A stretch of 31,834 nt of DNA, from IMG/VR virus record IMGVR_UViG_2974619728_000001, positions 1-31,834 of that record. One strand, given 5' to 3'. This DNA comes from a virus (Duplodnaviria; Heunggongvirae; Uroviricota; Caudoviricetes; Peduoviridae). Of the stretch, positions 5,995-30,172 are shown piece after piece (within the stretch, counting starts at the first letter, position 1; each line of letters starts with the position of its first letter). Position numbers and translations under genes: made by a program. The notes below the pieces were generated by a model. The model worked only from the letters and a program-made list of their open reading frames with translations. It did not search any database and was not told the origin of the DNA.

Positions 5995-6504
5995 ATGATG
6001 ACGCTGATTATTCCGCGAAAGGAGGCTCCCGTGTCCGGTGAGGGTACGGTGGTCATCCCGCAACCGGCAGGCGACGAGCCGGTGATTAAAAACACGTTCT
6101 TTTTTCCCGATATCGACCCGAAGCGCGTCCGGGAACGTATGCGCCTTGAGCAGACCGTCGCCCCCGCCCGTCTGCGTGAGGCCATCAAGTCAGGCATGGC
6201 TGAAACAAATGCGGAGCTGTACGAGTACCGCGAACAGAAAATTGCCGCCGGTTTTACGCGTCTGGCGGACGTTCCGGCGGACGACATCGACGGTGAAAGT
6301 ATCAAAGTTTTTTACTACGAGCGCGCCGTGTGTGCGATGGCGACCGCGTCGCTTTATGAGCGTTATCGCGGCGTGGATGCCAGTGCGAAAGGCGACAAGA
6401 AGGCTGACAGCATTGACAGCACCATTGATGAACTGTGGCGGGATATGCGCTGGGCGGTGGCGCGTATCCAGGACAAGCCGCGCTGCATCGTGAGTCAAAT
6501 CTGA
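5995..6504 (+). CDS. L: capsid completion protein, P2 gpL-like, about 169 aa
   Basis: Start placed at ATGATG 5995 preceded by GAGG; matches P2 gpL. Confidence 0.85.
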   Translation: MMTLIIPRKEAPVSGEGTVVIPQPAGDEPVIKNTFFFPDIDPKRVRERMRLEQTVAPARLREAIKSGMAETNAELYEYREQKIAAGFTRLADVPADDIDGESIKVFYYERAVCAMATASLYERYRGVDASAKGDKKADSIDSTIDELWRDMRWAVARIQDKPRCIVSQI

Positions 6505-6707
6505 TGAAGACCTTTGCGCTACAGGGCGACACGCTCGACGCCATTTGTGTCCGGTATTACGGGCGCACTGAGGGCGTGGTTGAGACCGTGCTCGCCGCAA
6601 ATCCGGGACTGGCTGAACTGGGTGCGGTGCTGCCACACGGCACCGCCGTCGAACTGCCCGACGTTCAGACCGCGCCCGTGGCTGAAACTGTCAATCTGTG
6701 GGAGTAA
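6504..6707 (+). CDS. X: tail protein X (LysM-like), 67 aa
   Basis: MKTFALQGDTLDAICVRYYG...; start ATG overlaps L stop (ATGA-type coupling). Confidence 0.85.
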   Translation: MKTFALQGDTLDAICVRYYGRTEGVVETVLAANPGLAELGAVLPHGTAVELPDVQTAPVAETVNLWE

Positions 6708-6710
6708 CGC

Positions 6711-6992
6711 ATGACAGCAGAAGAAAAAAGCGTCCTGTCGCTTTTCATGATTGGGGTGCTGATTGTTGTCGGCAAGGTGCTTGCCGGTGGTGAACCCATC
6801 ACCCCGCGTCTGTTTATCGGGCGCATGTTGCTCGGTGGTTTTGTCTCGATGGTTGCCGGTGTTGTTCTGGTGCAGTTTCCTGACCTGTCACTGCCTGCAG
6901 TGTGCGGCATCGGCTCCATGCTGGGTATCGCCGGTTATCAGGTGATTGAGATTGCCATTCAGCGCCGCTTTAAGGGCAGGGGGAAACCGTAA
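6711..6992 (+). CDS. Y: holin, P2 gpY-like, 93 aa
   Basis: Small hydrophobic ORF with transmembrane stretches, immediately upstream of the endolysin gene. Confidence 0.88.
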   Translation: MTAEEKSVLSLFMIGVLIVVGKVLAGGEPITPRLFIGRMLLGGFVSMVAGVVLVQFPDLSLPAVCGIGSMLGIAGYQVIEIAIQRRFKGRGKP

Positions 6993-7489
6993 TGCCGGTA
7001 ATTAACACGCATCAGAATATCGCCGCCTTTCTCGACATGCTGGCCGTGTCCGAAGGGACGGCGAACCATCCGCTGACGAAAAACCGGGGCTATGACGTGA
7101 TAGTCACCGGGCTGGACGGAAAACCGGAAATTTTCACCGACTACAGTGACCACCCGTTCGCGCATGGCCGACCGGCGAAGGTGTTTAACCGTCGCGGTGA
7201 AAAATCCACGGCCTCCGGTCGCTATCAGCAGCTTTACCTGTTCTGGCCGCACTACCGCAAACAGCTTGCCCTGCCGGATTTCAGTCCGTTGTCACAGGAC
7301 AGACTTGCCATTCAGTTGATCCGCGAACGCGGTGCACTGGATGACATCCGGGCGGGACGTATTGAGCGCGCCATTTCACGCTGTCGCAATATCTGGGCGT
7401 CCCTGCCGGGAGCCGGTTACGGTCAGCGTGAGCATTCACTGGAAAAACTGGTCACCGTCTGGCGTACCGCTGGCGGCGTACCGGCTTAA
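6992..7489 (+). CDS. K: endolysin (lysozyme-like), P2 gpK-like, 165 aa
   Basis: MPVINTHQNIAAFLDMLAVSEGT...; start overlaps Y stop. Confidence 0.9.
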   Translation: MPVINTHQNIAAFLDMLAVSEGTANHPLTKNRGYDVIVTGLDGKPEIFTDYSDHPFAHGRPAKVFNRRGEKSTASGRYQQLYLFWPHYRKQLALPDFSPLSQDRLAIQLIRERGALDDIRAGRIERAISRCRNIWASLPGAGYGQREHSLEKLVTVWRTAGGVPA

Positions 7490-7503
7490 ACGGAGTAAAC
7501 ACC

Positions 7504-7929
7504 ATGAAGAAATTATCCCTTTCACTGATGCTGAACGTGTCGCTGGCGCTGATGCTGGCACTGTCCCTGATTTACCCGCAGAGCGTGGCCGTCAGTTTTG
7601 TCGCCACCTGGGCGATTCTGGCGACGGTTATCTGTGTGGTTGCCGGTGGTGTCGGCGTGTATGCCACTGAGTATGTGCTGGAACGCTACGGGCGGGAGCT
7701 GCCGCCGGAATCGCTGGCCGTGAAGATTGTCGCGTCGCTGTTTTTGCAGCCGGTGCCGTGGCGCAGACGGGCGGCGGCTCTGGTGGTGATGGTGGTGACG
7801 TTTATCGCGCTGGTCGCCGCCGGGTGGATTTTTACCGCGCTGATTTATCTTGTGGCATCGGTGTTCTTCCGGCTGATACGTAAAGCCTGTCGTCAGCGTC
7901 TTGAGGGGCGGGAATTATGTCAAAGCTGA
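7504..7929 (+). CDS. lysA: lysis timing membrane protein LysA, 141 aa
   Basis: Multi-pass hydrophobic ORF following K; matches P2 LysA. Confidence 0.85.
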   Translation: MKKLSLSLMLNVSLALMLALSLIYPQSVAVSFVATWAILATVICVVAGGVGVYATEYVLERYGRELPPESLAVKIVASLFLQPVPWRRRAAALVVMVVTFIALVAAGWIFTALIYLVASVFFRLIRKACRQRLEGRELCQS

Positions 7930-8342
7930 TGATTGTGCTGGTCGTGTTGTTATCGCTGGCGGTGGCGGGGCTGTTTCTGGCAAAGCATGAAAACGCCAGC
8001 CTGCGCGCCTCGCTGGACAGGGCGAACAACGTCGCCAGTGAACAGCAGACGACCATCACCATGCTGAAAAACCAGCTTCATGTTGCCCTTACCAGGGCAG
8101 ACAAAAACGAGATGGCGCAGGTGGCACTGCGTCAGGAACTGGAGAACGCCGCGAAGCGTGAAGCACAGCGCGAGAAAACCATCACGAGGTTACTTAATGA
8201 GAACGAAGATTTTCGCCGCTGGTACGGTGCTGACCTGCCTGATGCTGTGCGCCGGTTGCACCAGCGCCCCGCCTGCACCGACGCCAGTGATTGTCCCCAA
8301 CGCATGCCCGAAAGTGAGCCTTTGCCCGATGCCGGGCAGTGA
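7917..8342 (+). CDS. lysB: LysB, Rz-like inner-membrane spanin, 141 aa
   Basis: N-terminal transmembrane segment MSKLMIVLVVLLSLAVAGLFLA then charged coiled-coil-like region; start overlaps lysA 3' end. Confidence 0.85.
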   Translation: MSKLMIVLVVLLSLAVAGLFLAKHENASLRASLDRANNVASEQQTTITMLKNQLHVALTRADKNEMAQVALRQELENAAKREAQREKTITRLLNENEDFRRWYGADLPDAVRRLHQRPACTDASDCPQRMPESEPLPDAGQ

Positions 8343-8487
8343 CCCGCAGACGAACGGCGATTTAAGTGCCGATATCCGGCAGCTTGAGAACGCGCTGGCA
8401 CGCTGTGCCAGCCAGGTAAAAATGATTAAACACTGTCAGGACGAAAACGATGCTCAAACCCGACAGCCTGCGCAGGGCGCTGACTGA
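8197..8487 (+). CDS. lysC: LysC, Rz1-like outer-membrane lipoprotein spanin, 96 aa, in +1 frame overlapping lysB 3' end and R 5' end
   Basis: Internal start MRTKIFAAGTVLTCLMLCAGC carries a lipobox (LCAGC); Pro-rich mature region. Confidence 0.8.
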   Translation: MRTKIFAAGTVLTCLMLCAGCTSAPPAPTPVIVPNACPKVSLCPMPGSDPQTNGDLSADIRQLENALARCASQVKMIKHCQDENDAQTRQPAQGAD

Positions 8488-8917
8488 TGCCGTCACGGTG
8501 CTGAAAACTAACCCCGATATGCTGCGGATATTCGTGGATAACGGGAGTATTGCCTCCACACTGGCGGCGTCGCTGTCATTCGAAAAGCGTTACACGCTCA
8601 ATGTGATTGTGACCGACTTTACCGGTGATTTTGACCTGCTCATCGTGCCGGTGCTGGCGTGGCTGCGGGAAAATCAGCCCGACATCATGACCACCGACGA
8701 AGGCCAGAAAAAGGGCTTCACGTTTTATGCAGACATCAACAATGACAGCAGCTTTGATATCAGTATCAGCCTGATGCTGACCGAGCGCACGCTGGTCAGT
8801 GAGGTTGACGGCGCACTGCATGTGAAGAATATCCCGGAACCTCCGCCGCCGGAGCCGGTCACCCGCCCGGTGGAGCTTTATATCAATGGCGAACTGGTGA
8901 GCAAGTGGGATGAATGA
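8450..8917 (+). CDS. R: tail completion protein, P2 gpR-like, 155 aa
   Basis: Full ORF; position and size match P2 gpR. Confidence 0.88.
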   Translation: MLKPDSLRRALTDAVTVLKTNPDMLRIFVDNGSIASTLAASLSFEKRYTLNVIVTDFTGDFDLLIVPVLAWLRENQPDIMTTDEGQKKGFTFYADINNDSSFDISISLMLTERTLVSEVDGALHVKNIPEPPPPEPVTRPVELYINGELVSKWDE

Positions 8918-9368
8918 GTTTAAGCGTTTTGAAGACCGGCTGACCGGACTGATTGAGTCGCTGTCACCGTCAGGGCGTCGGCGACTGGCGGTAGATATTG
9001 CGAAGAAACTGCGCCAGCGCCAGCAGCAGCGAATTAAATTACAAAAAGGCCCGGATGGTACGCCGTATGTACCGAGAAAAAACCAGCCAGTGCGAAATAA
9101 GAAAGGCCGGATAAAGCGGGAAATGTTTGTGAAATTACGCACTAACCGGTTTATGAAAGCAACAGGTAGCGAGAGTGCGGCGGTGGTGGAGTTTGCCAGC
9201 GGGGTGCAACGAATTGCGCGAGTACATCAATTAGGGCTTAAGGATAAGCCGGGGCGTAATAGTGCTGTGGTGGAATATCCTGTTCGTGAGTTATTTGGTT
9301 TTGACAAGGAATCTATACAATTGATAGAAAGGGAGTTATTAGTGATTCTATCGAAAGATGTTATATGA
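8910..9368 (+). CDS. S: tail completion protein, P2 gpS-like, 152 aa
   Basis: MNEFKRFEDRLTGLIESLSPSGRRRLA...; start overlaps R stop. Confidence 0.88.
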   Translation: MNEFKRFEDRLTGLIESLSPSGRRRLAVDIAKKLRQRQQQRIKLQKGPDGTPYVPRKNQPVRNKKGRIKREMFVKLRTNRFMKATGSESAAVVEFASGVQRIARVHQLGLKDKPGRNSAVVEYPVRELFGFDKESIQLIERELLVILSKDVI

Positions 9369-10120
9369 GACGGGTGTTTATGGATGAAAAGTTTTCTATT
9401 TTGAGAAAAAGAGTAAAGCACTCTCAAAAGAAAGTTATGGATTGTATTATTGCTGACCATAATGCTGATATATGTGTGTTATGCGGGAGTTCTGACGATA
9501 TTACTCGTGAGCACATTATTCCTCAGTGGGCCTTTGAGTCAAATGCTGAAAAATCTTTAATTAATAAAAAGAATAATCAGTCAACTCATTACATTAAAGC
9601 CACTGTACCAGCATGCAGAGTGTGCAATTCTGATTTGCTGGGAGTGTTTGAGTATAACCTGAAGAAATTTCTTACGGAAAAGAGGGGAGAGGAGTTAACA
9701 GATTATGAGTATGATTGCATCATATGGTGGTTGCAATACATGGGTTTTAAGTTGCAATTAATGGATTTGCGGAACCGCTTTCTCAGGTATAAAGGTGGTG
9801 ATTATATCCCGTTCCTTGCAAACTTCCCGGTTGCAATGTTTTGGGGGAATGTCGATACGACGCCGGGGGATGTCTTCAGGATTATACGAAAATCGCGACG
9901 CAATCTGATGTCGAAATGGAAGGATAAAAAACATAATTCTTTGATGGTTTTTGAAACATCAAACAAGAGTTTTCATTTCTTTCATAAGGTTGATGAATTT
10001 ATTTTTATTGAAATGCCTCAGGTTAAGAAGGCGTTTTTCTTCTTTTTTAATAAAGAATTTGACAGCCATGATTTAGCTCATGAGGGGTGTATGAAGATTA
10101 TAGAGAAGTGCTACAACTAA
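9365..10120 (+). CDS. AT-rich accessory ORF encoding HNH-type zinc-finger nuclease-like protein, 251 aa, at the position of P2 orf30
   Basis: Residues 37-88 read CVLC...REHIIP...N...H...CRVCN, a CxxC/H/N/CxxC HNH pattern; sequence markedly AT-rich against GC-richer flanks; ATG overlaps S stop. Confidence 0.65.
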   Translation: MRRVFMDEKFSILRKRVKHSQKKVMDCIIADHNADICVLCGSSDDITREHIIPQWAFESNAEKSLINKKNNQSTHYIKATVPACRVCNSDLLGVFEYNLKKFLTEKRGEELTDYEYDCIIWWLQYMGFKLQLMDLRNRFLRYKGGDYIPFLANFPVAMFWGNVDTTPGDVFRIIRKSRRNLMSKWKDKKHNSLMVFETSNKSFHFFHKVDEFIFIEMPQVKKAFFFFFNKEFDSHDLAHEGCMKIIEKCYN

Positions 10121-10197
10121 TATTTATTATGTTGTGTCACAGCTGACAGAATCCTCCATGATTGCTGCTGGTATCGTCCAGCGGCATCCTTCCCGTT
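10121..10197 (+). promoter_or_regulatory. candidate late promoter region for the V-W-J-I-H-G operon
   Basis: 77-bp gap before V; contains partial dyad TGTCACAGCTGACA. Placement inferred from P2 organisation, motif not verified. Confidence 0.35.
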
Positions 10198-10833
10198 ATG
10201 AACACTCTCGCAAATATTCAGGAACTCGCGCGCGCACTGCGCAACATGATTCGTACCGGCCTTGTCGTCGAAACCAACCTTAAAGCCGGTCGCTGCCGTG
10301 TGCAGACCGGCGGCATGTGCACCGACTGGCTTCAGTGGCTGACCCATCGCGCCGGACGTTCGCGCACATGGTGGGCACCTTCCGTGGGGGAACAGGTGCT
10401 GATTCTGGCCGTGGGCGGTGAACTCGACACGGCGTTCGTTCTGCCGGGGATTTATTCCGGCGATAACCCTGCGCCGTCTGCGTCGGCTGATGCCCTGCAT
10501 ATCCGTTTCCCTGACGGGGCGGTGATTGAGTATGAACCCGAAACCAGTGCACTGACGGTAAGCGGAATTAAAACGGCCAGCGTGACGGCTTCTGATTCTG
10601 TTACTGCCACGGTGCCGGTGGTCGCGGTGAAAGCATCAACCCGTGTCACTCTGGACACGCCGGAGGTGGTCTGCACCAACAGGCTGATTACCGGCACGCT
10701 GGAAGTACAGAAGGGCGGGACGATGCGCGGCAACATTGAACACACCGGCGGTGAACTCTCATCAAACGGTAAGGTACTGCATACCCATAAACACCCCGGC
10801 GACAGCGGCGGCACAACCGGGAGTCCTCTATGA
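10198..10833 (+). CDS. V: baseplate spike/assembly protein, P2 gpV-like, 211 aa
   Basis: Start placed at MNTLANIQELARA; matches P2 gpV. Confidence 0.88.
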   Translation: MNTLANIQELARALRNMIRTGLVVETNLKAGRCRVQTGGMCTDWLQWLTHRAGRSRTWWAPSVGEQVLILAVGGELDTAFVLPGIYSGDNPAPSASADALHIRFPDGAVIEYEPETSALTVSGIKTASVTASDSVTATVPVVAVKASTRVTLDTPEVVCTNRLITGTLEVQKGGTMRGNIEHTGGELSSNGKVLHTHKHPGDSGGTTGSPL

Positions 10834-12623: not shown

Positions 12624-14633
12624 ATGAGCACAAAATTCAGAACCGTTATCACCACTGCCGGTGCAGCAAAGCTGGCAGCGGCAACCGCACCGGGAGGGCG
12701 GAAGGTCAACATTACCACGATGGCCGTCGGGGATGGCGGTGGTAAATTGCCTGTCCCGGATGCCGGACAGACCGGGCTTATCCACGAAGTCTGGCGACAT
12801 GCGCTGAACAAAATCAGTCAGGACAAACGAAACAGTAATTATATTATCGCAGAGCTGGTTATTCCGCCGGAGGTGGGCGGTTTCTGGATGCGAGAGCTTG
12901 GCCTGTACGATGATGCGGGAACGTTAATTGCCGTGGCGAACATGGCCGAAAGTTATAAGCCAGCTCTTGCCGAAGGCTCAGGGCGTTCGCAGACCTGCCG
13001 CATGGTCATCATCGTCAGCACTGTGGCCTCAGTGGAGCTGACCATTGACACCACAACGGTGATGGCAACGCAGGATTACGTTGATGACAAAATTGCAGAG
13101 CACGAACAGTCACGACGTCACCCGGACGCCTCACTGACCGCAAAAGGTTTTACTCAGCTAAGCAGCGCGACCAACAGCACGTCTGAAACACTGGCCGCAA
13201 CGCCGAAAGCGGTTAAGGCCGCATATGACCTTGCTAACGGGAAATATACCGCACAGGACGCTACCACAGCGCGAAAAGGTCTTGTCCAGCTAAGTAGTGC
13301 GACCAACAGCATGTCTGAAACGCTCGCCGCAACACCAAAAGCCGTTAAGACGGTAATGGATGAAACGAACAAGAAAGCGCCATTAAACAGCCCTGCACTG
13401 ACCGGAACGCCAACGACGCCAACTGCGCGACAGGGAACGAATAATACTCAGATCGCAAACACGGCTTTCGTTATGGCCGCGATTGCCGCCCTTGTAGACT
13501 CGTCGCCTGACGCACTGAATACGCTGAACGAGCTGGCGGCGGCGCTGGGCAATGACCCGAATTTTGCTACCACCATGACTAATGCGCTTGCGGGTAAGCA
13601 ACCGAAAGATGCCACTTTGACGGCGCTGGCGGGGCTTGCTACTGCGGCAGACAGGTTTCCGTATTTTACGGGGAATGATGTTGCCAGCCTGGCGACCCTG
13701 ACAAAAGTCGGGCGGGATATTCTGGCTAAATCGACCGTTGCCGCCGTTATCGAATATCTCGGTTTACAGGAAACGGTAAACCGAGCCGGGAACGCCGTGC
13801 AAAAAAATGGCGATACCTTGTCCGGTGGACTTACTTTTGAAAACGACTCAATCCTTGCCTGGATTCGAAATACTGACTGGGCGAAGATTGGATTTAAAAA
13901 TGATGCCGATGGTGACACTGATTCATACATGTGGTTTGAAACGGGGGATAACGGCAATGAATATTTCAAATGGAGAAGCCGCCAGAGTACCACAACAAAA
14001 GACCTGATGACGTTGAAATGGGATGCACTAAATATTCTTGTTAATGCCGTCATTAATGGCTGTTTTGGAGTTGGTACGACGAATGCACTAGGTGGTAGCT
14101 CTATTGTTCTTGGTGATAATGATACCGGATTTAAACAGAATGGAGACGGTATTCTTGATGTTTATGCTAACAGTCAGCGTGTATTCCGTTTTCAGAATGG
14201 AGTGGCTATTGCTTTTAAAAATATTCAGGCAGGGGATAGTAAAAAGTTCTCGCTATCCAGCTCTAACACATCCACGAAGAATATTACCTTTAATTTATGG
14301 GGTGCTTCCACCCGTCCAGTGGTTGCAGAATTAGGCGATGAGGCCGGATGGCATTTCTATAGCCAGCGAAATACAGATAACTCGGTAATATTTGCTGTTA
14401 ACGGTCAGATGCAACCCCGCAACTGGGGAAATTTTGATTCCCGCTATGTGAAAGATGTTCGCCTGGGTACGCGAGTTGTTCAATTGATGGCGCGAGGTGA
14501 TCGTTATGAAAAAGCCGGACACACGATTACCGGATTAAGAATCATTGGTGAAGTAGATGGCGATGATGAAGCCATCTTCAGGCCGATACAAAAGTACATC
14601 AATGGCACATGGTATAACGTTGCGCAGGTGTAA
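12624..14633 (+). CDS. H: tail fiber protein, P2 gpH-like, 669 aa
   Basis: MSTKFRTVITTAGAAKLAAATAPG... conserved N-terminus; internal repeats; lower-GC C-terminal region typical of receptor-binding domains. Confidence 0.9.
   Translation: MSTKFRTVITTAGAAKLAAATAPGGRKVNITTMAVGDGGGKLPVPDAGQTGLIHEVWRHALNKISQDKRNSNYIIAELVIPPEVGGFWMRELGLYDDAGTLIAVANMAESYKPALAEGSGRSQTCRMVIIVSTVASVELTIDTTTVMATQDYVDDKIAEHEQSRRHPDASLTAKGFTQLSSATNSTSETLAATPKAVKAAYDLANGKYTAQDATTARKGLVQLSSATNSMSETLAATPKAVKTVMDETNKKAPLNSPALTGTPTTPTARQGTNNTQIANTAFVMAAIAALVDSSPDALNTLNELAAALGNDPNFATTMTNALAGKQPKDATLTALAGLATAADRFPYFTGNDVASLATLTKVGRDILAKSTVAAVIEYLGLQETVNRAGNAVQKNGDTLSGGLTFENDSILAWIRNTDWAKIGFKNDADGDTDSYMWFETGDNGNEYFKWRSRQSTTTKDLMTLKWDALNILVNAVINGCFGVGTTNALGGSSIVLGDNDTGFKQNGDGILDVYANSQRVFRFQNGVAIAFKNIQAGDSKKFSLSSSNTSTKNITFNLWGASTRPVVAELGDEAGWHFYSQRNTDNSVIFAVNGQMQPRNWGNFDSRYVKDVRLGTRVVQLMARGDRYEKAGHTITGLRIIGEVDGDDEAIFRPIQKYINGTWYNVAQV
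13155..13352 (+). repeat. imperfect ~63-bp direct repeat pair inside gene H (protein repeat QLSSATNS(T/M)SETLAATPKAVK)
   Basis: DNA near 13155-13217 and 13290-13352 is near-identical; the two protein copies are visible in the H translation and mirrored in the antisense ORF 13154-13372. Confidence 0.8.
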
Positions 14634-14636
14634 GTT

Positions 14637-15164
14637 ATGCAGCATTTAAAGAACATTAAGTCAGGTAATCCAAAAACAAAAGAGCAATATCAGCTAACAA
14701 AGAATTTTGATGTTATCTGGTTATGGTCCGAAGACGGAAAAAACTGGTATGAGGAAGTGAAGAACTTTCAGCCAGACACAATAAAGATTGTTTACGATGA
14801 AAATAATATTATTGTCGCTATCACCAGAGATGCTTCAACGCTTAATCCTGAAGGTTTTAGCGTTGTTGAGGTTCCTGATATTACTGCCAACCGGCGTGCT
14901 GATGACTCAGGTAAATGGATGTTTAAGGATGGTGCAGTGATTAAGCGGATTTATACGGCAGACGAACAGCAGCAACTGGCAGAATCACAAAAGGCAACTT
15001 TGCTTTCCGAAGCCGAATCCGTGATTTTGCCACTGGAGCGCGCTGTCAGGCTGAATATGGCAACAGATGAGGAGCGCAGTCGACTGGAGGCATGGGAACG
15101 CTACAGCGTTCTGGTCAGTCGTGTGGATCCTGCAAATCCTGAATGGCCGGAAATGCCGCAATAA
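14637..15164 (+). CDS. G: tail fiber assembly chaperone, P2 gpG-like, 175 aa
   Basis: Full ORF directly after H; matches P2 gpG. Confidence 0.88.
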
Positions 15165-15198
15165 GTTGTATGAACTCTGGTGTGAGCTTACATATCTA

Positions 15199-15240
15199 TG
15201 GCACAGAGTAAAGCCTAATCTGGCAGTCCGCTCTGTGCCA
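15199..15240. other. perfect 10-bp inverted repeat (TGGCACAGAG...CTCTGTGCCA) with 22-nt loop in the G-distal intergenic region
   Basis: Seen directly; no flanking T tract, so not a classic terminator. Confidence 0.6.
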
Positions 15241-15357
15241 TTACCGGACATACTGAGCAGAAGGCTAAAAAGGACGCTTTCAGGACATATAGCAAGGGAG
15301 CAAGGATGAAAGAATTAACCCAGTATATTTAATGTTTCAATCATGATAGTTTCTGAA

Positions 15358-15384
15358 TTAAAGGGGGCTATCCACCCCCTTTAA
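15358..15384. terminator. hairpin TTAAAGGGGG-CTATCCA-CCCCCTTTAA between convergent G and the minus-strand accessory genes (likely bidirectional terminator)
   Basis: 10-bp perfect stem and 7-nt loop, immediately 3' of the minus-strand ORF stop (15385-15387) and followed by T-rich sequence on the plus strand. Confidence 0.6.
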
Positions 15385-15663
15385 TTACTTGTTCCACTCA
15401 GTCAGAATTTGGTTACTAACTTCATCTGAGAGATTGTACCAATAAGCTGAGTTATTGGTTGCGTCTACAACAATAAGCTTATCATCACTATCCATGACCG
15501 CCCTCACAATTTTGGCTGCATCCTCGGCAGAGTAACTACAGTTAACATACCAGTTCGATTCAGTTGTTAAAGCCCAATTTCCTAAAGATTTAATTGCATC
15601 ATACACAGCCGCATAATCTTTCGTTTTAATGAGGTCGTAAGTAATAAATAAATTATTAGCCAT
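15385..15663 (-). CDS. AT-rich accessory ORF, hypothetical protein, 92 aa
   Basis: ORF with GGAG about 9 nt upstream of ATG on the minus strand; alternating predicted beta/alpha segments; no recognisable catalytic motif. Confidence 0.55.
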   Translation of the reverse strand: MANNLFITYDLIKTKDYAAVYDAIKSLGNWALTTESNWYVNCSYSAEDAAKIVRAVMDSDDKLIVVDATNNSAYWYNLSDEVSNQILTEWNK

Positions 15664-15680
15664 AAATCATCTCCCAAAGG

Positions 15681-15709
15681 ACAAAGAAAAAAGCGCCTAG
15701 AAAGGCGCT
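15681..15709 (-). terminator. small hairpin (AGCGCC-TAGAAA-GGCGCT) with following U-rich tract on the minus strand, between the two minus-strand accessory ORFs
   Basis: Seen directly; 6-bp stem, then T5CTTTGT in minus-strand sense. Confidence 0.4.
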
Positions 15710-15715
15710 CATATA

Positions 15716-15934
15716 TTAATGGTCTTTAAGCCATGCCTGTACTTTCTTAGCCGAATGACCTACAGCCTGTACGGCTTGAACAAGTTTGGCCTCGCTAACT
15801 CCAAACTTTTCAGCCCAATCACGTCTCTCGTAATCCTGTTTGATACTTATTAAATCATTGTCAGGGGTACCGATTTTGGTCTTATCATCAGCCATTTTAC
15901 TGATTCCTCGTGATACAGGCTTATACCTGCCCAT
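15716..15934 (-). CDS. small accessory protein resembling the DUF3606 family, 72 aa (or 59 aa if started at internal Met, 15895)
   Basis: C-terminal segment ...RRDWAEKFGVSEAKLVQAVQAVGHSAKKVQAWL fits the DUF3606 pattern as I recall it; two alternative ATGs each with a GGAG-like element. Confidence 0.5.
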   Translation of the reverse strand: MGRYKPVSRGISKMADDKTKIGTPDNDLISIKQDYERRDWAEKFGVSEAKLVQAVQAVGHSAKKVQAWLKDH

Positions 15935-16386
15935 TAGTTATATGGCTCCCGTGCTGCTTCGTAAACGTTCAATAATCAAACAATTGACACTGATCATAAA
16001 ACCAGTTGGAGGATTTGACTCTAGCTTGGATATATGATGATGCCACCCTCTTTATATTGTTGTCGGTAACTCACAGACATTGAACTCATGCTGGTGAGTG
16101 AAAGGCTACATAAACGCCCAACATTTAAACTGCCCTCAGCAGCGTTTGCGGAGCAATATACAGGCTTCGTATTCAATCCTTGCCCTACGAGAAACCCTAG
16201 CCGTTGCCTCGTTTTCAAGTGTCAGGAAGTTCTTTGTCAGACCTCATACAGTCTTGGGCTGGGTGAGGTGCATGGGGGAAGTAGAAGCCTTAACTGTTGA
16301 GGTAAATCGAACCATAAGTGTGCAATTTTTCAAGCCCGGCGCTATTTTAGTATTGAAAACAATTAGTACGCCCCCAAGGACAACTC

Positions 16387-17079
16387 ATGATCGAATTTAT
16401 CGCAGAGCATATAAACACAGTAAGTACACTTATCTCCGCTTTGGCAGCATTGCTAACAGCAGTTGCTACATTTTTCTTGTGGAGAGTAACAAGGCTATTA
16501 GCAGACGAGACAAAAAGGATGGTTGACGCATCAGTTCAACCTCATGTCGTTGTGACTCTTGAACCAAATTCTTGGGCTGCTTTTTATTTTGATATCAATA
16601 TTGCTAATACCGGAAATGCCCCAGCCTATGATATTGAAGTCGGATTTAATCCCCCACTGGTTAATGCAGAACATAGAAAAAATAAAGGTATACCATTTAG
16701 CAAGGTTAGCGTATTGAAAAACGGCCATTCCCTCAACAGCAGTCTTTGTAAGTATGACCAGATTAAAGATCAAGTTTATTCTGTTAGTATTAGCTGGTCT
16801 AAACAGCCGGGCTCAACTGAAAGAGAGCGGAATGAGTATTCTTATGATATGGCTTCTTTCGAGGGGGTTAGCTACTTAGGTGCAAGGAGTCCAATGACAC
16901 AGATAGCTGAGCAGATGAAAAAGATTAGAGAAGACTGGAGGCCGATTTCCCAGGGAAGCAAAAAAATTAGAACAGACAACTATAATTCAAGTGACAGAGC
17001 AGAGGAACAACGAGCACGTGAAGAGTGGTATCAGACCACTGTAAAGAAATGGGATAAAGAAAGGCAAAAAGATAACTAA
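16387..17079 (+). CDS. AT-rich accessory membrane-anchored protein, 230 aa, unknown function (Z/fun position)
   Basis: AAGGA 6 nt upstream of ATG; one N-terminal hydrophobic helix (about residues 11-33, TLISALAALLTAVATFFLW); strongly charged C-terminal tail. Confidence 0.65.
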   Translation: MIEFIAEHINTVSTLISALAALLTAVATFFLWRVTRLLADETKRMVDASVQPHVVVTLEPNSWAAFYFDINIANTGNAPAYDIEVGFNPPLVNAEHRKNKGIPFSKVSVLKNGHSLNSSLCKYDQIKDQVYSVSISWSKQPGSTERERNEYSYDMASFEGVSYLGARSPMTQIAEQMKKIREDWRPISQGSKKIRTDNYNSSDRAEEQRAREEWYQTTVKKWDKERQKDN

Positions 17080-17215
17080 TACAATTGACCTGCTCCCCAT
17101 AAATTAGCATACCACAATCTCAGGTTCCTCTTCGCTCAAAACAGGCAGTCAGATTTGATAGCGTTTTGGCTATGTAAATTGTCAGTCGGAAAATGAGTGT
17201 GTACAAATCAGGACA

Positions 17216-17245
17216 GGCGGGCAGATTGCCCGCCTTTTCTTTATC
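17216..17245 (+). terminator. rho-independent terminator after the accessory membrane-protein gene
   Basis: GGCGGGCA-GAT-TGCCCGCC perfect 8-bp stem followed by TTTTCTTTATC. Confidence 0.7.
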
Positions 17246-17338
17246 TGTTGTTTCATCCACTGACCAGCCAGGTCAAATAGCGTCTCATGTACTACCCAAC
17301 GGAAAATAGTTGCACCCATTAACCACGGAGTTAAACGG
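17246..17338 (+). promoter_or_regulatory. candidate late promoter region (P_F) for FI-FII-E-T-U-D
   Basis: Position between terminator and FI start, with GGAG RBS at 17327-17330; inferred from P2 organisation, motif not verified. Confidence 0.4.
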
Positions 17339-18529
17339 ATGAGTGACTATCATCACGGCGTGCAGGTACTGGAGATTAACGACGGCACCCGCGTCATTTC
17401 CACCGTATCCACAGCCATTGTCGGCATGGTCTGCACGGCCAGCGATGCGGATGCGGAAACCTTCCCCATCAATAAACCGGTGCTGATTACCAATGTGCAG
17501 AACGCAATTGCAAAGGCTGGTAAAAAAGGCACGCTGGCGGCATCGTTGCAGGCCATCGCCGACCAGTCAAAACCGATCACCGTTGTCGTGCGTGTGGAAG
17601 ACGGCACCGGCGACGACGAGGAAACGAAACTCGCGCAGACCGTTTCCAATATCATCGGCACCACCGACGAAAACGGTCAGTACACAGGACTGAAAGCCCT
17701 GCTGGCGGCGGAGTCGGTAACCGGTGTTAAACCGCGTATTCTCGGCGTGCCGGGACTGGACACCAAAGAGGTGGCTGTTGCACTGGCATCAGTCTGTCAG
17801 AAGCTGCGCGCTTTCGGGTATATCAGCGCATGGGGCTGTAAAACCATTTCCGAGGTGAAAGCCTACCGTCAGAATTTCAGCCAGCGTGAGCTGATGGTCA
17901 TCTGGCCGGATTTCCTCGCATGGGATACGGTTGCCAGTACCACCGCCACCGCGTATGCCACCGCCCGTGCGCTGGGTCTGCGTGCCAGAATCGACCAGGA
18001 GCAGGGCTGGCATAAAACGCTGTCCAACGTCGGGGTGAACGGTGTTACCGGCATCAGCGCATCTGTATTCTGGGATTTGCAGGAGTCCGGCACCGATGCT
18101 GACCTGCTGAATGAGTCAGGCGTCACAACGCTGATTCGCCGTGACGGTTTCCGCTTCTGGGGTAACCGTACCTGCTCTGATGACCCGCTGTTCCTCTTTG
18201 AAAACTACACCCGCACCGCGCAGGTGCTGGCCGACACGATGGCTGAGGCGCACATGTGGGCGGTGGACAAGCCCATCACCGCAACGCTGATTCGCGACAT
18301 CGTTGACGGCATCAATGCCAAATTCCGTGAGCTGAAAACAAACGGCTATATCGTGGATGCGACCTGCTGGTTCAGCGAAGAATCCAACGATGCGGAAACC
18401 CTCAAGGCCGGAAAACTGTATATCGACTACGACTATACCCCGGTGCCTCCTCTCGAAAACCTGACCCTGCGCCAGCGTATTACCGATAAATACCTGGCAA
18501 ATCTGGTCACTTCGGTTAACAGCAATTAA
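17339..18529 (+). CDS. FI: tail sheath protein, P2 gpFI-like, 396 aa
   Basis: Full ORF; size and position match the contractile-tail sheath. Confidence 0.92.
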   Translation: MSDYHHGVQVLEINDGTRVISTVSTAIVGMVCTASDADAETFPINKPVLITNVQNAIAKAGKKGTLAASLQAIADQSKPITVVVRVEDGTGDDEETKLAQTVSNIIGTTDENGQYTGLKALLAAESVTGVKPRILGVPGLDTKEVAVALASVCQKLRAFGYISAWGCKTISEVKAYRQNFSQRELMVIWPDFLAWDTVASTTATAYATARALGLRARIDQEQGWHKTLSNVGVNGVTGISASVFWDLQESGTDADLLNESGVTTLIRRDGFRFWGNRTCSDDPLFLFENYTRTAQVLADTMAEAHMWAVDKPITATLIRDIVDGINAKFRELKTNGYIVDATCWFSEESNDAETLKAGKLYIDYDYTPVPPLENLTLRQRITDKYLANLVTSVNSN

Positions 18530-18541
18530 GGAGCCTGACCG

Positions 18542-19060
18542 ATGGCAATGCCGCGCAAACTCAAGTTAATGAACGTCTTTCTGAACGGCTACAGCTATCA
18601 GGGCGTTGCAAAGTCCGTCACGCTGCCAAAACTGACCCGTAAGCTCGAAAACTATCGCGGTGCGGGAATGAACGGCAGCGCACCGGTAGACCTCGGCCTT
18701 GATGACGATGCGCTGTCAATGGAGTGGTCGCTCGGGGGCTTCCCGGATTCGGTTATCTGGGAGCTTTACGCCGCAACCGGTGTGGATGCTGTGCCGATTC
18801 GTTTTGCAGGCTCTTACCAGCGTGACGATACCGGCGAAACGGTGGCCGTCGAGGTGGTCATGCGTGGACGTCAGAAAGAAATCGACACCGGCGAGGGTAA
18901 ACAGGGAGAAGACACCGAGTCGAAAATCTCCGTGGTCTGCACCTATTTCCGGCTGACGATGGACGGTAAGGAGCTGGTCGAAATCGACACCATCAACATG
19001 ATTGAGAAGGTGAACGGCGTCGACCGGCTGGAGCAACACCGCCGCAATATCGGCCTGTGA
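18542..19060 (+). CDS. FII: tail tube protein, P2 gpFII-like, 172 aa
   Basis: Full ORF immediately after sheath. Confidence 0.9.
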   Translation: MAMPRKLKLMNVFLNGYSYQGVAKSVTLPKLTRKLENYRGAGMNGSAPVDLGLDDDALSMEWSLGGFPDSVIWELYAATGVDAVPIRFAGSYQRDDTGETVAVEVVMRGRQKEIDTGEGKQGEDTESKISVVCTYFRLTMDGKELVEIDTINMIEKVNGVDRLEQHRRNIGL

Positions 19061-19116
19061 TTTTCATCCGGTCAGCCTGGCTGACCGGTTAACCCCGATT
19101 CATAAGTGAGAAAACC

Positions 19117-19392
19117 ATGAACAAAGAAAATGTGATTACCCTGGACAATCCGGTCAAACGTGGTGAGCAGGTTATCGAACAGGTCACGCTGATGAAACCC
19201 AGTGCCGGGACGCTGCGCGGTGTCAGTCTGGCTGCGGTCGCGAACTCCGAAGTCGATGCACTGATTAAGGTGCTGCCGCGCATGACGGCACCGATGCTGA
19301 CCGAGCAGGAAGTCGCCGCACTGGAACTGCCTGACCTTGTGGCGCTGGCCGGTAAGGTGGTCGGTTTTTTGTCGCCGAACTCGGTGCAGTGA
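19117..19392 (+). CDS. E: tail assembly chaperone E, 91 aa
   Basis: Full ORF MNKENVITLDNPVKRGEQ... preceding the tape measure gene. Confidence 0.88.
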   Translation: MNKENVITLDNPVKRGEQVIEQVTLMKPSAGTLRGVSLAAVANSEVDALIKVLPRMTAPMLTEQEVAALELPDLVALAGKVVGFLSPNSVQ

Positions 19393-19544
19393 CGTTTCCG
19401 AAAAATCTGTCGGTCGATGACCTGATGGCGGATGTGGCAGTGATATTTCACTGGCCGCCATCAGAACTGTATCCCATGAGCCTGACCGAACTCATCACAT
19501 GGCGCGAAAAGGCGCTCCGGCGAAGCGGAAACACGAATGAGTAA
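19117..19544 (+). CDS. E+E': E+E' fusion made by programmed -1 frameshift at slippery run TTTTTTG (about 19366-19372); about 142 aa, ending at TAA 19542-19544 inside the T start
   Basis: Hand translation of the -1 frame from 19368 reads FVAELGAVTFPKNLSVDDLMADVAVIFHWPPSELYPMSLTELITWREKALRRSGNTNE with no stop until 19542; total length matches P2 E+E'. Confidence 0.75.
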
Positions 19545-21984
19545 CAATGTAAAATTACAGGTATTGCTCAGGGCTGTTGACCAGGCATCCCGCCCGTTTA
19601 AATCCATCCGTACAGCGAGTAAGTCGCTGTCGGGGGATATCCGGGAAACACAAAAATCACTGCGCGAGCTGAACGGTCACGCATCCCGTATTGAGGGATT
19701 TCGCAAGACCAGTGCACAGCTCGCCGTGACTGGTCATGCACTTGAAAAGGCACGGCAGGAGGCCGAAGCCCTTGCCACGCAGTTTAAAAATACCGAACGT
19801 CCGACCCGTGCTCAGGCGAAAGTGCTGGAATCCGCAAAGCGTGCGGCGGAGGACTTACAGGCGAAATATAACCGCCTGACAGATTCCGTTAAACGCCAGC
19901 AGCGGGAACTGGCCGCTGTGGGAATTAATACCCGCAATCTTGCACATGATGAGCAGGGACTGAAAAACCGTATCAGTGAAACCACCGCACAGCTTAACCG
20001 GCAGCGTGACGCGCTGGCGCGTGTCAGTGCGCAACAGGCAAAACTTAATGCAGTAAAACAACGTTATCAGGCTGGAAAGGAACTGGCCGGAAATATGGCC
20101 TCAGTGGCCGCTGCCGGTGTGGGGATTGCTGCTGCGGGAACGATGGCCGGAGTTAAGTTGCTGATGCCCGGTTATGAGTTTGCGCAGAAAAACTCAGAAT
20201 TGCAGGCCGTGCTCGGTGTGGCAAAAGACTCCGCCGAAATGACCGCACTCCGCAAGCAGGCGCGCCAGCTCGGCGACAATACCGCAGCCTCGGCAGATGA
20301 TGCAGCCGGTGCGCAGATTATCATTGCGAAAGCCGGTGGGGATGTTGATGCCATTCAGGCGGCAACGCCGGTCACGCTGAATATGGCGCTGGCGAACCGT
20401 CGCACGATGGAAGAAAACGCCGCCCTGCTGATGGGGATGAAATCCGCCTTTCAGCTTTCAAACGATAAGGTCGCTCATATCGGGGATGTTCTCTCCATGA
20501 CGATGAACAAAACCGCCGCCGATTTTGACGGTATGAGCGATGCGCTGACCTATGCCGCACCAGTGGCAAAAAATGCCGGTGTCAGCATTGAAGAAACCGC
20601 CGCAATGGTCGGGGCGCTGCATGACGCAAAAATTACTGGTTCAATGGCGGGGACGGGAAGCCGTGCCGTGTTAAGCCGCCTGCAGGCACCGACGGGAAAA
20701 GCATGGGATGCACTCAAAGAGCTTGGTGTGAAAACCTCAGACAGCAAGGGAAACACCCGACCAGTATTTACCATTCTGAAAGAAATGCAGGCCAGTTTTG
20801 AGAAAAACCGGCTCGGTACTGCCCAGCAGGCTGAATACATGAAAACTATTTTCGGGGAGGAGGCCAGCTCAGCCGCCGCCGTGCTGATGACTGCCGCCTC
20901 AACTGGAAAGCTGGACAAACTGACCGCTGCGTTTAAAGCCTCAGACGGGAAGACCGCTGAGCTGGTAAATATCATGCAGGACAACCTCGGCGGTGACTTT
21001 AAGGAGTTTCAGTCCGCTTATGAGGCGGTGGGGACTGACCTGTTTGACCAGCAGGAAGGCGCACTGCGTAAGCTCACGCAGACGGCCACAAAGTATGTGT
21101 TAAAACTCGACGGCTGGATACAGAAAAACAAATCACTGGCGTCAACCATCGGCATCATTGTCGGTGGTGCACTGGCGCTGATTGGTGTCATCGGTGCCAT
21201 TGGCCTCGTAGCCTGGCCGGTTATCACCGGCATCAATGCCATCATCGCGGCAGCAGGCGCAATGGGAGCAATCTTCACGACGGTTGGCAGTGCTGTTATG
21301 ACGGCCATCGGGGCGATTAGCTGGCCGGTTGTGGCCGTGGTGGCCGCCATTGTCGCCGGGGCGTTACTTATCCGTAAATACTGGGAGCCTGTCAGCGCAT
21401 TCTTTGGCGGTGTGGTTGAAGGGCTGAAAGCGGCATTTGCGCCGGTGGGGGAACTGTTCACGCCACTTAAGCCGGTGTTTGACTGGCTGGGCGAAAAGTT
21501 ACAGGCCGCGTGGCAGTGGTTTAAAAACCTGATTGCCCCGGTCAAAGCCACCCGGGACACCCTGAACCGTTGCCGTGATACGGGCGTCATGTTCGGGCAG
21601 GCACTGGCTGACGCGTTGATGCTGCCGCTTAATGCGTTCAACAAACTGCGCAGCGGTATTGACTGGGTACTGGAAAAACTCGGTGTTATCAACAAAGAGT
21701 CAGGCACGCTTGACCAGACCGCCGCCAGAACTCATGCCGCCACGTATGGCACCGGTGGTTATATTCCGGCGACCAGCTCTTATGCAGGCTATCAGGCTTA
21801 TCAGCCGGTTACGGCACCGGCTGGCCGCTCTTATGTGGACCAGAGTAAAAACGAATATCACATCAGTCTGACGGGCGGTACTGCGCCGGGGACTCAGCTC
21901 GACCGCCAGTTACAGGATGCGCTCGAAAAATACGAGCGGGATAAACGTGCGCGCGCCCGTGCCAGCATGATGCATGACGGTTAA
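19537..21984 (+). CDS. T: tail tape measure protein, P2 gpT-like, 815 aa
   Basis: Long ORF with coiled-coil-like N-terminal part and Gly/Ala-rich hydrophobic central region. Confidence 0.9.
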   Translation: MSNNVKLQVLLRAVDQASRPFKSIRTASKSLSGDIRETQKSLRELNGHASRIEGFRKTSAQLAVTGHALEKARQEAEALATQFKNTERPTRAQAKVLESAKRAAEDLQAKYNRLTDSVKRQQRELAAVGINTRNLAHDEQGLKNRISETTAQLNRQRDALARVSAQQAKLNAVKQRYQAGKELAGNMASVAAAGVGIAAAGTMAGVKLLMPGYEFAQKNSELQAVLGVAKDSAEMTALRKQARQLGDNTAASADDAAGAQIIIAKAGGDVDAIQAATPVTLNMALANRRTMEENAALLMGMKSAFQLSNDKVAHIGDVLSMTMNKTAADFDGMSDALTYAAPVAKNAGVSIEETAAMVGALHDAKITGSMAGTGSRAVLSRLQAPTGKAWDALKELGVKTSDSKGNTRPVFTILKEMQASFEKNRLGTAQQAEYMKTIFGEEASSAAAVLMTAASTGKLDKLTAAFKASDGKTAELVNIMQDNLGGDFKEFQSAYEAVGTDLFDQQEGALRKLTQTATKYVLKLDGWIQKNKSLASTIGIIVGGALALIGVIGAIGLVAWPVITGINAIIAAAGAMGAIFTTVGSAVMTAIGAISWPVVAVVAAIVAGALLIRKYWEPVSAFFGGVVEGLKAAFAPVGELFTPLKPVFDWLGEKLQAAWQWFKNLIAPVKATRDTLNRCRDTGVMFGQALADALMLPLNAFNKLRSGIDWVLEKLGVINKESGTLDQTAARTHAATYGTGGYIPATSSYAGYQAYQPVTAPAGRSYVDQSKNEYHISLTGGTAPGTQLDRQLQDALEKYERDKRARARASMMHDG

Positions 21985-21998
21985 GGAGGTGACGAAAA

Positions 21999-22478
21999 AT
22001 GATGCTCGCGTTAGGTATGTTTGTTTTTATGCGCCAGACGCTGCCACACCAGACCATGCAGCGTGAATCAGATTATCGCTGGCCGTCAAATTCCCGTATC
22101 GGTAAACGGGATGCCTTTCAGTTTCTCGGTGTGGGCGAGGAAAACATCACGCTTGCCGGTGTGCTTTATCCCGAACTGACCGGCGGCAAGCTGACGATGA
22201 CCACGCTCAGACTGATGGCAGAGGAAGGCCGGGCGTGGCCGTTGCTGGATGGCACTGGCATGATTTACGGTATGTATGTCATCAGCAAGGTGAGTGAAAC
22301 AGGGAGTATTTTCTTTGCAGACGGCACACCCCGGAAAATTGATTTTACGCTGTCGCTCACCCGCGTTGATGAATCACTGGCCGCGCTTTATGGCGATATC
22401 GGTAAACAGGCGGAGTCGCTCATCGGTAAGGCCGGCAGTCTGGCGACCAGATTCACAGGTATGATGGGGGCGGGATAA
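21999..22478 (+). CDS. U: tail protein, P2 gpU-like, 159 aa
   Basis: Full ORF after T. Confidence 0.88.
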   Translation: MMLALGMFVFMRQTLPHQTMQRESDYRWPSNSRIGKRDAFQFLGVGEENITLAGVLYPELTGGKLTMTTLRLMAEEGRAWPLLDGTGMIYGMYVISKVSETGSIFFADGTPRKIDFTLSLTRVDESLAALYGDIGKQAESLIGKAGSLATRFTGMMGAG

Positions 22479-23641
22479 TGCTGGATGCGCTGACATTTGA
22501 TGCAGGCAGTACGCTGACGCCGGATTACATGCTGATGCTCGACAGCAGGGATATTACCGGCAATATCAGCGACCGTCTGATGAGCATGACTCTGACGGAT
22601 AACCGGGGCTTTGAAGCTGACCAGCTTGATATTGAACTGAACGATGCCGACGGGCAGGTCGGGCTGCCGGTTCGTGGCGCTGTCCTGACGGTGTATATCG
22701 GCTGGAAAGGTTTTGCCCTGGTATGCAAAGGGAAATTCACCGTTGATGAGGTTGAACACCGGGGCGCGCCGGATGTGGTCACCATCCGCGCCCGGAGTGC
22801 AGATTTCCGCGGGACGCTCAATTCCCGCCGGGAAGGCTCCTGGCATGACACCACGCTCGGTGCGATTGTTGAGGCGATAGCCTCCCGTAACAGGCTGGAA
22901 GCCAGTGTCGCTCCGTCACTGGCCGGAATTAAAATCCCGCACATCGACCAGTCGCAGGAGTCTGATGCGAAATTCCTGACCCGTCTTGCAGAACGCAACG
23001 GCGGTGAGGTGTCGGTAAAAATGGGAAAACTGTTGTTTCTCAAAGCGGGGCAGGGGGTGACGGCCAGCGGTAAAAAAATCCCGCAGGTCACCATCACCCG
23101 CAGCGACGGCGACCGCCATCATTTTGCGATTGCTGACCGTGGAGCCTATACCGGCGTAACGGCAAAGTGGTTACACACCAAAGACCCGAAGCCGCAAAAG
23201 CAGAAGGTAAAACTGAAACGCAAAAAGAAAGAAAAACACCTGCGCGCACTGGAGCACCCGAAAGCAAAACCGGTCAGGCAGAAGAAAGCGCCAAAAGTAC
23301 CGGAAGCGCGCGAAGGTGAATACATGGCCGGTGAGGCTGACAACGTTTTTGCCCTGACCACGGTATATGCCACGAAAGCACAGGCCATGCGTGCCGCTCA
23401 GGCGAAGTGGGATAAACTGCAACGGGGCGTTGCGGAGTTCTCCATCAGCCTGGCTACCGGTCGTGCTGATATTTACACGGAAACACCGGTTAAAGTATCA
23501 GGCTTTAAGCGCGTCATAGACGAGCAGGACTGGACAATCACTAAGGTGACACATTTTCTGAATAATAGCGGCTTCACGACGTCCTTAGAGCTTGAGGTCA
23601 GGCTTTCTGATGTGGAGTACGAAACAGAAGATGATGAGTGA
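22478..23641 (+). CDS. D: tail protein D (late tail gene), 387 aa
   Basis: Full ORF overlapping U stop; Lys-rich internal segment; matches P2 gpD. Confidence 0.88.
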   Translation: MLDALTFDAGSTLTPDYMLMLDSRDITGNISDRLMSMTLTDNRGFEADQLDIELNDADGQVGLPVRGAVLTVYIGWKGFALVCKGKFTVDEVEHRGAPDVVTIRARSADFRGTLNSRREGSWHDTTLGAIVEAIASRNRLEASVAPSLAGIKIPHIDQSQESDAKFLTRLAERNGGEVSVKMGKLLFLKAGQGVTASGKKIPQVTITRSDGDRHHFAIADRGAYTGVTAKWLHTKDPKPQKQKVKLKRKKKEKHLRALEHPKAKPVRQKKAPKVPEAREGEYMAGEADNVFALTTVYATKAQAMRAAQAKWDKLQRGVAEFSISLATGRADIYTETPVKVSGFKRVIDEQDWTITKVTHFLNNSGFTTSLELEVRLSDVEYETEDDE

Positions 23642-23722
23642 TGTAATTTATTTATCTGTTTGTTTTATAAGGATAAATTAACTAAAATGGCACTATCAAC
23701 AAAACCGGAAGAGGTGCTCGCG

Positions 23723-29996: not shown

Positions 29997-30172
29997 AAAG
30001 TTGAAGATGTGAACACTGTTATTGGTAGGTAAGTAGATTTGTATGTATAAAGTAGTTGTTGTAGATATGAACAATCAGGCGTAGAATCGCCAGCCGGCTA
30101 TGATGATTCCAGATGATAATGGTTATCATTAGCTGTTGATTTATGATGTTCTTAACCACTAGAGAGACTAAT

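Follow-up and report, generated by a model that had tools for sequence, protein, structure and literature searches.

The AT-rich open reading frame that separates the tail completion gene S from the baseplate spike gene V in this Peduoviridae genome encodes a stand-alone HNH-domain protein of 251 amino acids, which we refer to as gene X (positions 9365–10120, plus strand, of the 31,834-nucleotide window, i.e. the whole stretch of DNA analysed). Gene X is accessory cargo of a polymorphic slot, the S–V or “orf30” slot, which elsewhere holds bona fide defence systems. The reading that we prefer, at about even odds (a probability of roughly 0.5), is that it is a nuclease directed against competing phages or mobile elements, carried as cargo of this slot and representing an uncharacterised HNH family.

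Gene X is a genuine, conserved gene under purifying selection and not a chance ORF. This is clear from the uncharacterised family PHROG 10503, which matches it end to end (E 1.1e-179), from homologues that form 44 clusters at 90%, from a dN/dS of 0.15 (as against 0.16–0.20 for S and 0.17–0.20 for V), and from its being intact in 53 of 55 loci taken from IMG/VR and other assemblies. The homologues come almost throughout from Enterobacterales, and none has a Pfam annotation. RefSeq lists the protein as “hypothetical protein”, which is also what it is always called, adjoining S, in the 79 of 5426 complete E. coli genomes that carry it. Searches with tblastn found no match to gene X in 50,697 deposited phage genomes or in 72,556 plasmids, and the literature on orf30, on HNH proteins in P2 prophages and on the RefSeq accession yielded no characterisation of the family. 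An earlier note, made from the letters of this DNA, had described an AT-rich ORF of this position and length whose ATG overlaps the stop codon of S, and that ORF is present as claimed, the ATG at 9365 and the TGA of S sharing bases as ATGA. The GC content is indeed low over gene X (0.365–0.40, versus 0.55–0.60 on either flank); however, the low-GC tract does not begin with the ORF but at about 9230, some 135 nucleotides ahead of it, within the 3′ end of S.

The window is 94–97% identical to P2-type phages except for the gene X insert. Gene S itself (8910–9368, plus strand) is a mosaic: the part from 8910 to about 9100 is P2-like, the part from about 9100 to 9230 is a divergent allele common to other cargo types, and the AT-rich 3′ end (9230–9368, plus strand), in which the last ~45 codons are recoded, travels with gene X and constitutes the left end of the cassette. 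The right junction is at 10121–10129, with homology to insert-less P2-like phages restarting at 10130. From there, positions 10130–10155 (plus strand) align with the annotated binding site of the P2 pV activator (Ogr); this homologue of the activator site lies ten bases past the stop codon of gene X, and the late promoter region of the V operon is kept. Gene V (10198–10833, plus strand) follows as the first gene of the next late operon.

In P2, the S–V junction carries the terminator of the O operon, the oppositely oriented orf30, the activator site and the start of the pV operon. Gene X had been placed inside an otherwise tightly packed late operon, a description that we do not uphold: the S–V junction is an operon boundary, between the O and pV operons of P2, and a known variable locus, with the orf30 region being one of three recognised horizontal-transfer loci in P2-type phages (PMC3091744). 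Defence hotspots have also been reported inside P2 late genes (10.64898/2026.02.27.708500; PMC13586616). The suggestion that gene X occupies the position of P2 orf30 holds for the slot, but the two genes are on opposite strands and are unrelated, homology of gene X to P2 Orf30 having been rejected on a BLASTP E of 0.47.

Within E. coli, the slot is mostly empty. Gene X is found in 76 (~5%) of the 1626 genomes that have an S–V region, and the flanks are ~96% identical among gene X-bearing and gene X-less prophages. An orf30-sized “hypothetical” protein fills the slot in about one in six of a spread E. coli sample. Rarer cargo includes a protein with a RelA/SpoT domain (PADLOC candidate PDC-S33), one of the AAA/P-loop type (PDC-S59) and, in locus L077, a complete Pycsar system made up of PycTM and PycC (E 1.5e-128), which is placed like gene X, on the same strand and with its start 15 bp past S. 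Linkage between gene X and the divergent allele of the S 3′ end is nearly complete within E. coli (78 versus 77 genomes), and 19 more genomes have in common only the part of this allele upstream of ~9230. Nevertheless, a recoded tail is not specific to gene X, since the Pycsar and PDC-S59 cassettes carry their own, different AT-rich S tails, while the empty, orf30 and RelA/SpoT slots have the standard S tail in common. The recoded S tail is a general mark of cassettes being exchanged by a crossover that falls within S.

The zinc-finger HNH core of gene X spans residues 37–88 (9473–9628, plus strand) and comprises C37xxC40, E49-H50, N70/N71/Q72 and C84xxC87-N88, with its two halves separated by a beta-hairpin insertion of ~28 residues. 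The CxxC pairs, the EH and the CxxCN that had been picked out in this region are all present and are invariant in the family: C37, C40, E49, H50, P53, W55, C84, C87 and N88 do not vary among 21 gene X family members, and the CxxC/EH/CxxCN set is also invariant across 19 sequences that include ~20%-identical relatives; P53 and W55 likewise hold in the alignments extending to such relatives. The further “H” of the claimed pattern, His75, does not stand, as it is not conserved among the 21 family members; N70-N71-Q72 are the conserved middle residues of the motif. The E49-H50 pair is invariant in four alignments and falls on a modelled strand (residues 46–50), and N88 begins a modelled helix (residues 85–105).

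HNH_5 (PF14279) is the sole Pfam family matched by gene X, so that the comparison with Pfam HNH families, which had been put forward as a check, points to the expected kind of domain, but the match (16.2 bits, E 0.01, profile positions 1–21 of 56) does not reach the Pfam gathering threshold of that family, which is 27.5 bits. When ten distant relatives were scanned singly against HNH_5, the top score was 25.5 bits (P0133), and 23 of 49 distant relatives match it at E <= 1e-3 (best 2.8e-7), with no other Pfam family matched by any of the 49. NCBIfam and single-sequence PDB searches with gene X gave nothing significant, and neither did whole-protein Foldseek comparison of the gene X model with the PDB return anything below E = 1. 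The top match of a deep-profile search against 177,635 PDB sequences was the HNH endonuclease 4H9D (E 0.89), which aligns to both halves of the gene X motif, in order, and whose VPACxxCN has the layout of the second CxxC-N of gene X. This second CxxC-Asn is also, we assume, comparable to C58xxC61-N62 of endo VII. Structure prediction, the other check that had been suggested, bore the proposal out: the domain model of gene X superposes on HNH domains, and the beta-beta-alpha fold is recognisable by structure comparison.

We conclude that the N-terminal domain of gene X is a zinc-finger HNH of the endo VII/HNH_5 type with a hairpin insertion. The proposal of a stand-alone protein whose HNH-type (beta-beta-alpha-metal) domain has two zinc-binding CxxC pairs is thus supported, with profile scores that stay below threshold. 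By analogy, E49-H50 would be the catalytic dyad, with H50 as the predicted general base, and N88 the putative metal ligand on the helix. Nuclease activity, with DNA as the substrate, is likewise a prediction.

The C-terminal ~143 residues (109–251; 9689–10117, plus strand) are modelled as helices and a four-stranded sheet, and the region has no solved structural relative. No Pfam or PDB match was found for residues 109–251, in agreement with the view that the ~160 residues outside the motif lack an assignable relative, and no recognisable modified-base reader domain was found in gene X with either resource, though the region may hold a reader of a novel kind. Residues 139–163 (FLRYKG..IPFL..PVAMFWG..DTTP; 9779–9853, plus strand) are highly conserved and are modelled with a pLDDT below 50; they are possibly an interaction or DNA-contact loop. 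An exhaustive profile search of 1.84 billion representatives recovered 886 proteins at E <= 1e-3, and 35 of them have E values below 1e-30. The best-ranked of these 35 strong matches align over nearly the whole gene X profile, and several hundred proteins of 300–400 aa have their N-terminal ~100 residues in common with gene X. Profile–profile comparison with a ~330-aa group of this superfamily covers residues 28–215 (probability 99.6%, E 1.3e-24), and on the basis of this homology gene X is a compact representative of a wider superfamily that is itself uncharacterised.

Distant homologues of gene X occur within defence islands or are carried by mobile elements. A 37%-identical homologue (L058) has a ThsB-like TIR gene, a DUF4062/PDC-S60 gene, two 8xMP genes and a T5orf172/PDC-S57 gene nearby; a 35%-identical one (L082) is surrounded by BrnT/BrnA, a CBASS operon and two integrases; a 33%-identical one (L084) adjoins GmrSD and an MmeI-type R-M enzyme; and two others (L085 and L086) are on mobile elements. 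The contexts of L003, L087 and L088 are uninformative, and there is no recurring partner gene in any of the homologue contexts examined. Residence in defence hotspots or islands, which is a generic mark of defence genes, is thus found for gene X, both as slot cargo and in L058, L082 and L084, although such association is indirect evidence. The other S–V cargo and these homologue neighbourhoods lead us to favour defence or exclusion among the three functions offered in the earlier note, the other two, homing and packaging, being disfavoured. At the level of known systems, none of the 5027 models of PADLOC v2.0.0 matches gene X significantly (best E 0.023, to PDC-M01B, and 0.035), and a link with PDC-M01B was rejected as only one of the 49 relatives matches it, weakly.

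In the defence role that we infer, the HNH domain of gene X would cut DNA belonging to rival phages or to other elements that invade the cell, with the novel region of ~160 residues presumably supplying target recognition or regulation. The outcome would be anti-phage defence or exclusion, to the benefit of both the prophage and the lysogen. Gene X would act as a single-gene system, without a methyltransferase or other partner, and self DNA might be spared because the enzyme, in the manner of type IV systems, prefers DNA that is modified or foreign, or because it is activated only on infection.

The way in which gene X has been inherited does not sit easily with this picture. Typical defence cargo of P2 is reported to show quick turnover and little linkage to core similarity (PMC13586616). 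In contrast, all 48 gene X-bearing P2-type contigs (45–100% identity, several genera) have the order R-S-X-V-W-J, with the start of gene X overlapping the S stop or within ~20 nt of it in every one of these loci, and the GC content of gene X is 0.32–0.38 versus 0.55–0.61 for the flanks in every lineage. The pairwise distance of gene X tracks that of R, S, V, W and J (Pearson 0.80–0.88), and among 820 locus pairs there is none in which gene X is much closer than the core genes. Gene X has, therefore, long been inherited together with its neighbours while staying AT-rich. Such co-divergence with the core is atypical of P2 defence cargo and suits a phage-centred function; the persistence of an AT-rich gene across P2-type lineages whose core genes have diverged to ~50% identity is unusual for prophage defence cargo.

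This pattern counts in favour of the main rival explanation, which we regard as possible but unlikely: that gene X is a late-expressed, phage-centred nuclease, which is transcribed when the late O operon is and at no other time, and which leaves the uninduced lysogen unprotected. Such an enzyme would work for the phage in its lytic cycle or in competition at that point, for example by attacking host, competitor or satellite DNA once the late genes are on. As well as abutting or overlapping the stop codon of S, gene X is on the same strand as S in 48 of 48 P2-type loci, and its core-like co-divergence and purifying selection are not what is expected of fast-swapping defence cargo. In the window, no sigma-70-like promoter or terminator is seen in the S–X interval or in the X–V interval. 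Promoter-like sites occur in 8 of 36 distinct gene X upstream regions, compared with 13% of shuffles, and their position is not conserved across lineages, although AT-rich DNA may hold non-consensus promoters that such a scan would miss. The AT-rich S tail was rejected as a source of a promoter for gene X, though an unconventional one there is conceivable. Given that gene X abuts S and has no detectable sigma-70-type promoter, it is probably co-transcribed with the late O operon, and it is possibly also translationally coupled to S. However, gene X is dispensable, being absent from ~95% of closely related E. coli prophages, and the same arrangement is seen for Pycsar, which makes the position compatible with a defence role. 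Moreover, the non-phage homologues are found in defence islands, where there is no late operon.

The late-phage explanation merges into a reading gated by trans-activation, in which gene X, having no promoter of its own, is silent in the lysogen, is made only when the late O operon fires, and cuts the DNA of the intruder. We consider this combined scheme doubtful. Firing would follow induction, or trans-activation of the late promoters of the resident prophage, either by the Ogr of a heteroimmune P2-type phage that superinfects the lysogen or by the Delta of a P4-type satellite. Gene X would then be a prophage-encoded weapon against satellites or relatives, set off by the hijacking of late promoters. 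Such a switch would account for three features of gene X, namely that it abuts S, that it lacks a promoter and that, unusually, it co-diverges with the core structural genes. The persistence of gene X and its apparent dependence on late-operon transcription are both unusual for prophage defence cargo, and explaining them could reveal how lysogens keep toxic effectors silent.

A free-standing homing endonuclease would be a natural interpretation of an HNH domain located between conserved genes and sporadic among near-identical prophages (76 of 1626). Such an enzyme would cut the S–V junction or the S 3′ end of genomes that lack gene X, and repair would copy gene X in, dragging the flanking S tail along; the tight association of the recoded S tail with gene X in E. 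coli is what would be predicted. We nevertheless find homing improbable. Recoding of the S tail as a homing co-conversion or immunity tract was rejected, as non-nuclease cargo (Pycsar and PDC-S59) brings its own AT-rich S tails, which points to recombinational cassette exchange. Co-divergence of gene X with its flanks, with cross-lineage spread in 0 of 820 pairs, argues in the same direction, as does the lack of any sign of a degeneration cycle, with few decayed copies and strong purifying selection. No NUMOD, IENR1 or HTH modules, the DNA-binding modules of the homing type, were detected, and homologues also occur singly in bacterial defence islands.

It seems to us quite improbable that gene X is a methylation-sensitive HNH restriction enzyme for which the protecting methylation comes from elsewhere, for instance from host Dam, and which would leave resident DNA uncut when this is fully methylated. 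The evidence for this is one association, that of a 39%-identical homologue (L057), from a different accessory region in a P2-type prophage, which is convergent with a D12-class (Dam-class) adenine methyltransferase. The P2-slot family is also limited to Enterobacterales, hosts that we presume to be Dam-positive. On the other hand, there is no methyltransferase in a 99.9%-identical prophage (strain M172-1), for which reason a classical R-M pairing was rejected, and none adjoins gene X in the 48 P2-slot loci or its homologues in Bacteroidota and other contexts. Least probable of all is that gene X is a packaging HNH that helps the terminase to cleave cos, like HK97 gp74, or else a zinc-finger protein without catalysis that binds DNA or has a regulatory function. 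Against this, gene X is placed among the tail genes, between S and V and 5–6 kb away from those for terminase and portal. Some 95% of near-identical prophages that look functional are without it, and it was found in none of the deposited phage genomes searched. Its invariant catalytic E-H and N residues argue against a purely structural zinc finger.

Comparison with known systems places the nuclease domain of gene X nearest to the zinc-finger HNH nucleases of the HNH_5/T4 endonuclease VII type (4H9D, 1E7D), in which two CxxC pairs likewise bracket an acidic-His dyad and an Asn directly follows the second CxxC. Gene X differs from these proteins in that its motif is split by the hairpin, which leaves only positions 1–21 of the 56 in the profile aligned, and scores below threshold, and in having N-terminal helices and a C-terminal region without a known fold. 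Compared with EcoKMcrA and other single-protein type IV (modification-dependent) HNH restriction enzymes, gene X lacks a recognisable modified-base reader, has the reverse domain order, with the HNH at the N terminus, and shows no sequence homology outside the motif. Free-standing phage HNH homing endonucleases share with gene X the HNH domain, the location between conserved genes and the patchy distribution; unlike them, gene X co-diverges with its flanks, is under strong purifying selection and is without homing-type modules, and the recoding beside it is common to non-nuclease cargo.

With respect to location, the closest counterparts of gene X are Pycsar, PDC-S59, PDC-S33 and Orf30, all of which are AT-rich, sporadic and located in this slot, with S on one side and the pV activator site on the other. 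Pycsar is most like gene X: it shares the strand, abuts S in the same way and likewise comes with a recoded S tail of its own. These cargo genes belong to unrelated families, however, and several of them are on the opposite strand, while gene X has been kept across far more divergent P2-type lineages than the others. Old, Tin and Fun(Z) of P2 are also AT-rich, non-essential genes in variable loci of P2-type prophages. They act against other phages, an exclusion phenotype that is experimentally established (10.1101/2024.10.15.618418; PMC9122126), whereas the role of gene X is a predicted one, and they belong to other protein families and reside in the gpA–portal and tail-fibre–sheath slots.

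If gene X does protect against phages, it would represent a new single-gene nuclease defence family, in which a new recognition or regulatory domain has been built on a minimal HNH core. The S–V (“orf30”) junction would then be a defence locus, and as such a P2 hotspot that is not singled out in the defence-hotspot papers that we found. The family would comprise some 35 full-length clusters (50% identity), and the superfamily around it ~886 clusters, none of which is in the 2023 PADLOC catalogue. Without a phenotype, gene X is an ordinary uncharacterised accessory (moron-like) gene.

The start codon of gene X is ambiguous. An alternative ATG at 9380 (Met-6), which would give a protein of 246 aa, is the start used by most gene X homologues and by the PGAP annotation of the 99.9%-identical prophage. 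Many E. coli alleles have GTG at codon 6, yet they keep the upstream ATGA overlap with S.

The tail-completion gene S (8910-9368) is a mosaic of three parts. Its first ~190 nt share ~95% identity with P2-type phages; the stretch at about 9100-9230 matches, at 96% identity, a divergent allele common to Pycsar-carrying prophages; and the segment at 9230-9368 is AT-rich and specific to the cassette, that is, to the cargo together with the recoded end of S that travels with it. Recombination breakpoints therefore lie inside an essential tail gene. The slot between S and the baseplate-spike gene V also accommodates other cargo. In a P2-type prophage of E. coli ST2747 (locus L077, 2787-4689), a complete Pycsar system (PycTM and PycC) lies there on the same strand as S, beginning 15 bp past S, and is accompanied by its own recoded, AT-rich S tail (GC 0.27).

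Five loci (L004, L037, L041, L042 and L045) carry ~1 kb of additional cargo between V and X, the HNH-domain gene that occupies the slot in the window, and thus one S-V slot can hold two cargoes. The lineages concerned include some of Klebsiella type and others. In L004, this additional cargo is an ORF of 216 aa (6926-7576, minus strand), for which searches of Pfam and PADLOC returned no match.

Among the E. coli alleles of X, codon 6 (window 9380-9382) varies between ATG and GTG (L015, L020-L024), and the upstream ATG overlapping the S stop is conserved in these same alleles. Which start codon is used is uncertain, and may differ among lineages.

The X family extends to other genomic settings. 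On a mobile element (L086), a 271-aa member (8001-8816) adjoins a gene (6494-7711, minus strand) whose 405-aa product matches Pfam HNH_5, such that two HNH proteins stand side by side in divergent arrangement. In another P2-type prophage (L057, 606-2483), a homologue with 39% identity to X is convergent with a D12-class adenine methyltransferase, the pair being located in a different accessory region, after gpD and a lysozyme; this is the sole hint of a restriction-modification-like pairing. Loci L013 and L024 both derive from one viral contig of 47,980 bp (IMGVR_UViG_2565956724_000008), in which two X-carrying R-S-X-V regions lie in opposite orientation (14904-23656 and 24325-33077). The arrangement could stem from neighbouring prophages, from duplication with inversion, or from an error of assembly.

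A second AT-rich island (window ~13800-17400, GC 0.41-0.45) spans the tail-fibre end and the Z/fun slot. Its ORFs of 92 aa (15385-15663, minus strand) and 230 aa (16387-17079, plus strand) had no match in Pfam. In the corresponding region of the 99.9% identical prophage of strain M172-1, the PGAP annotation also places a DUF3606 gene.

The right end of the window (30000-31834) is likewise AT-rich (GC 0.33-0.40). Here, replication gene A is directly followed by a gene for a 361-aa Fic/DOC-domain protein (30367-31452, minus strand; Pfam Fic, E 6.9e-17) with the motif HPFQDGNGRSIR. Since P2-type phages have their classic old/tin hotspot at this site, the gene is probably a further conflict or toxin cargo.
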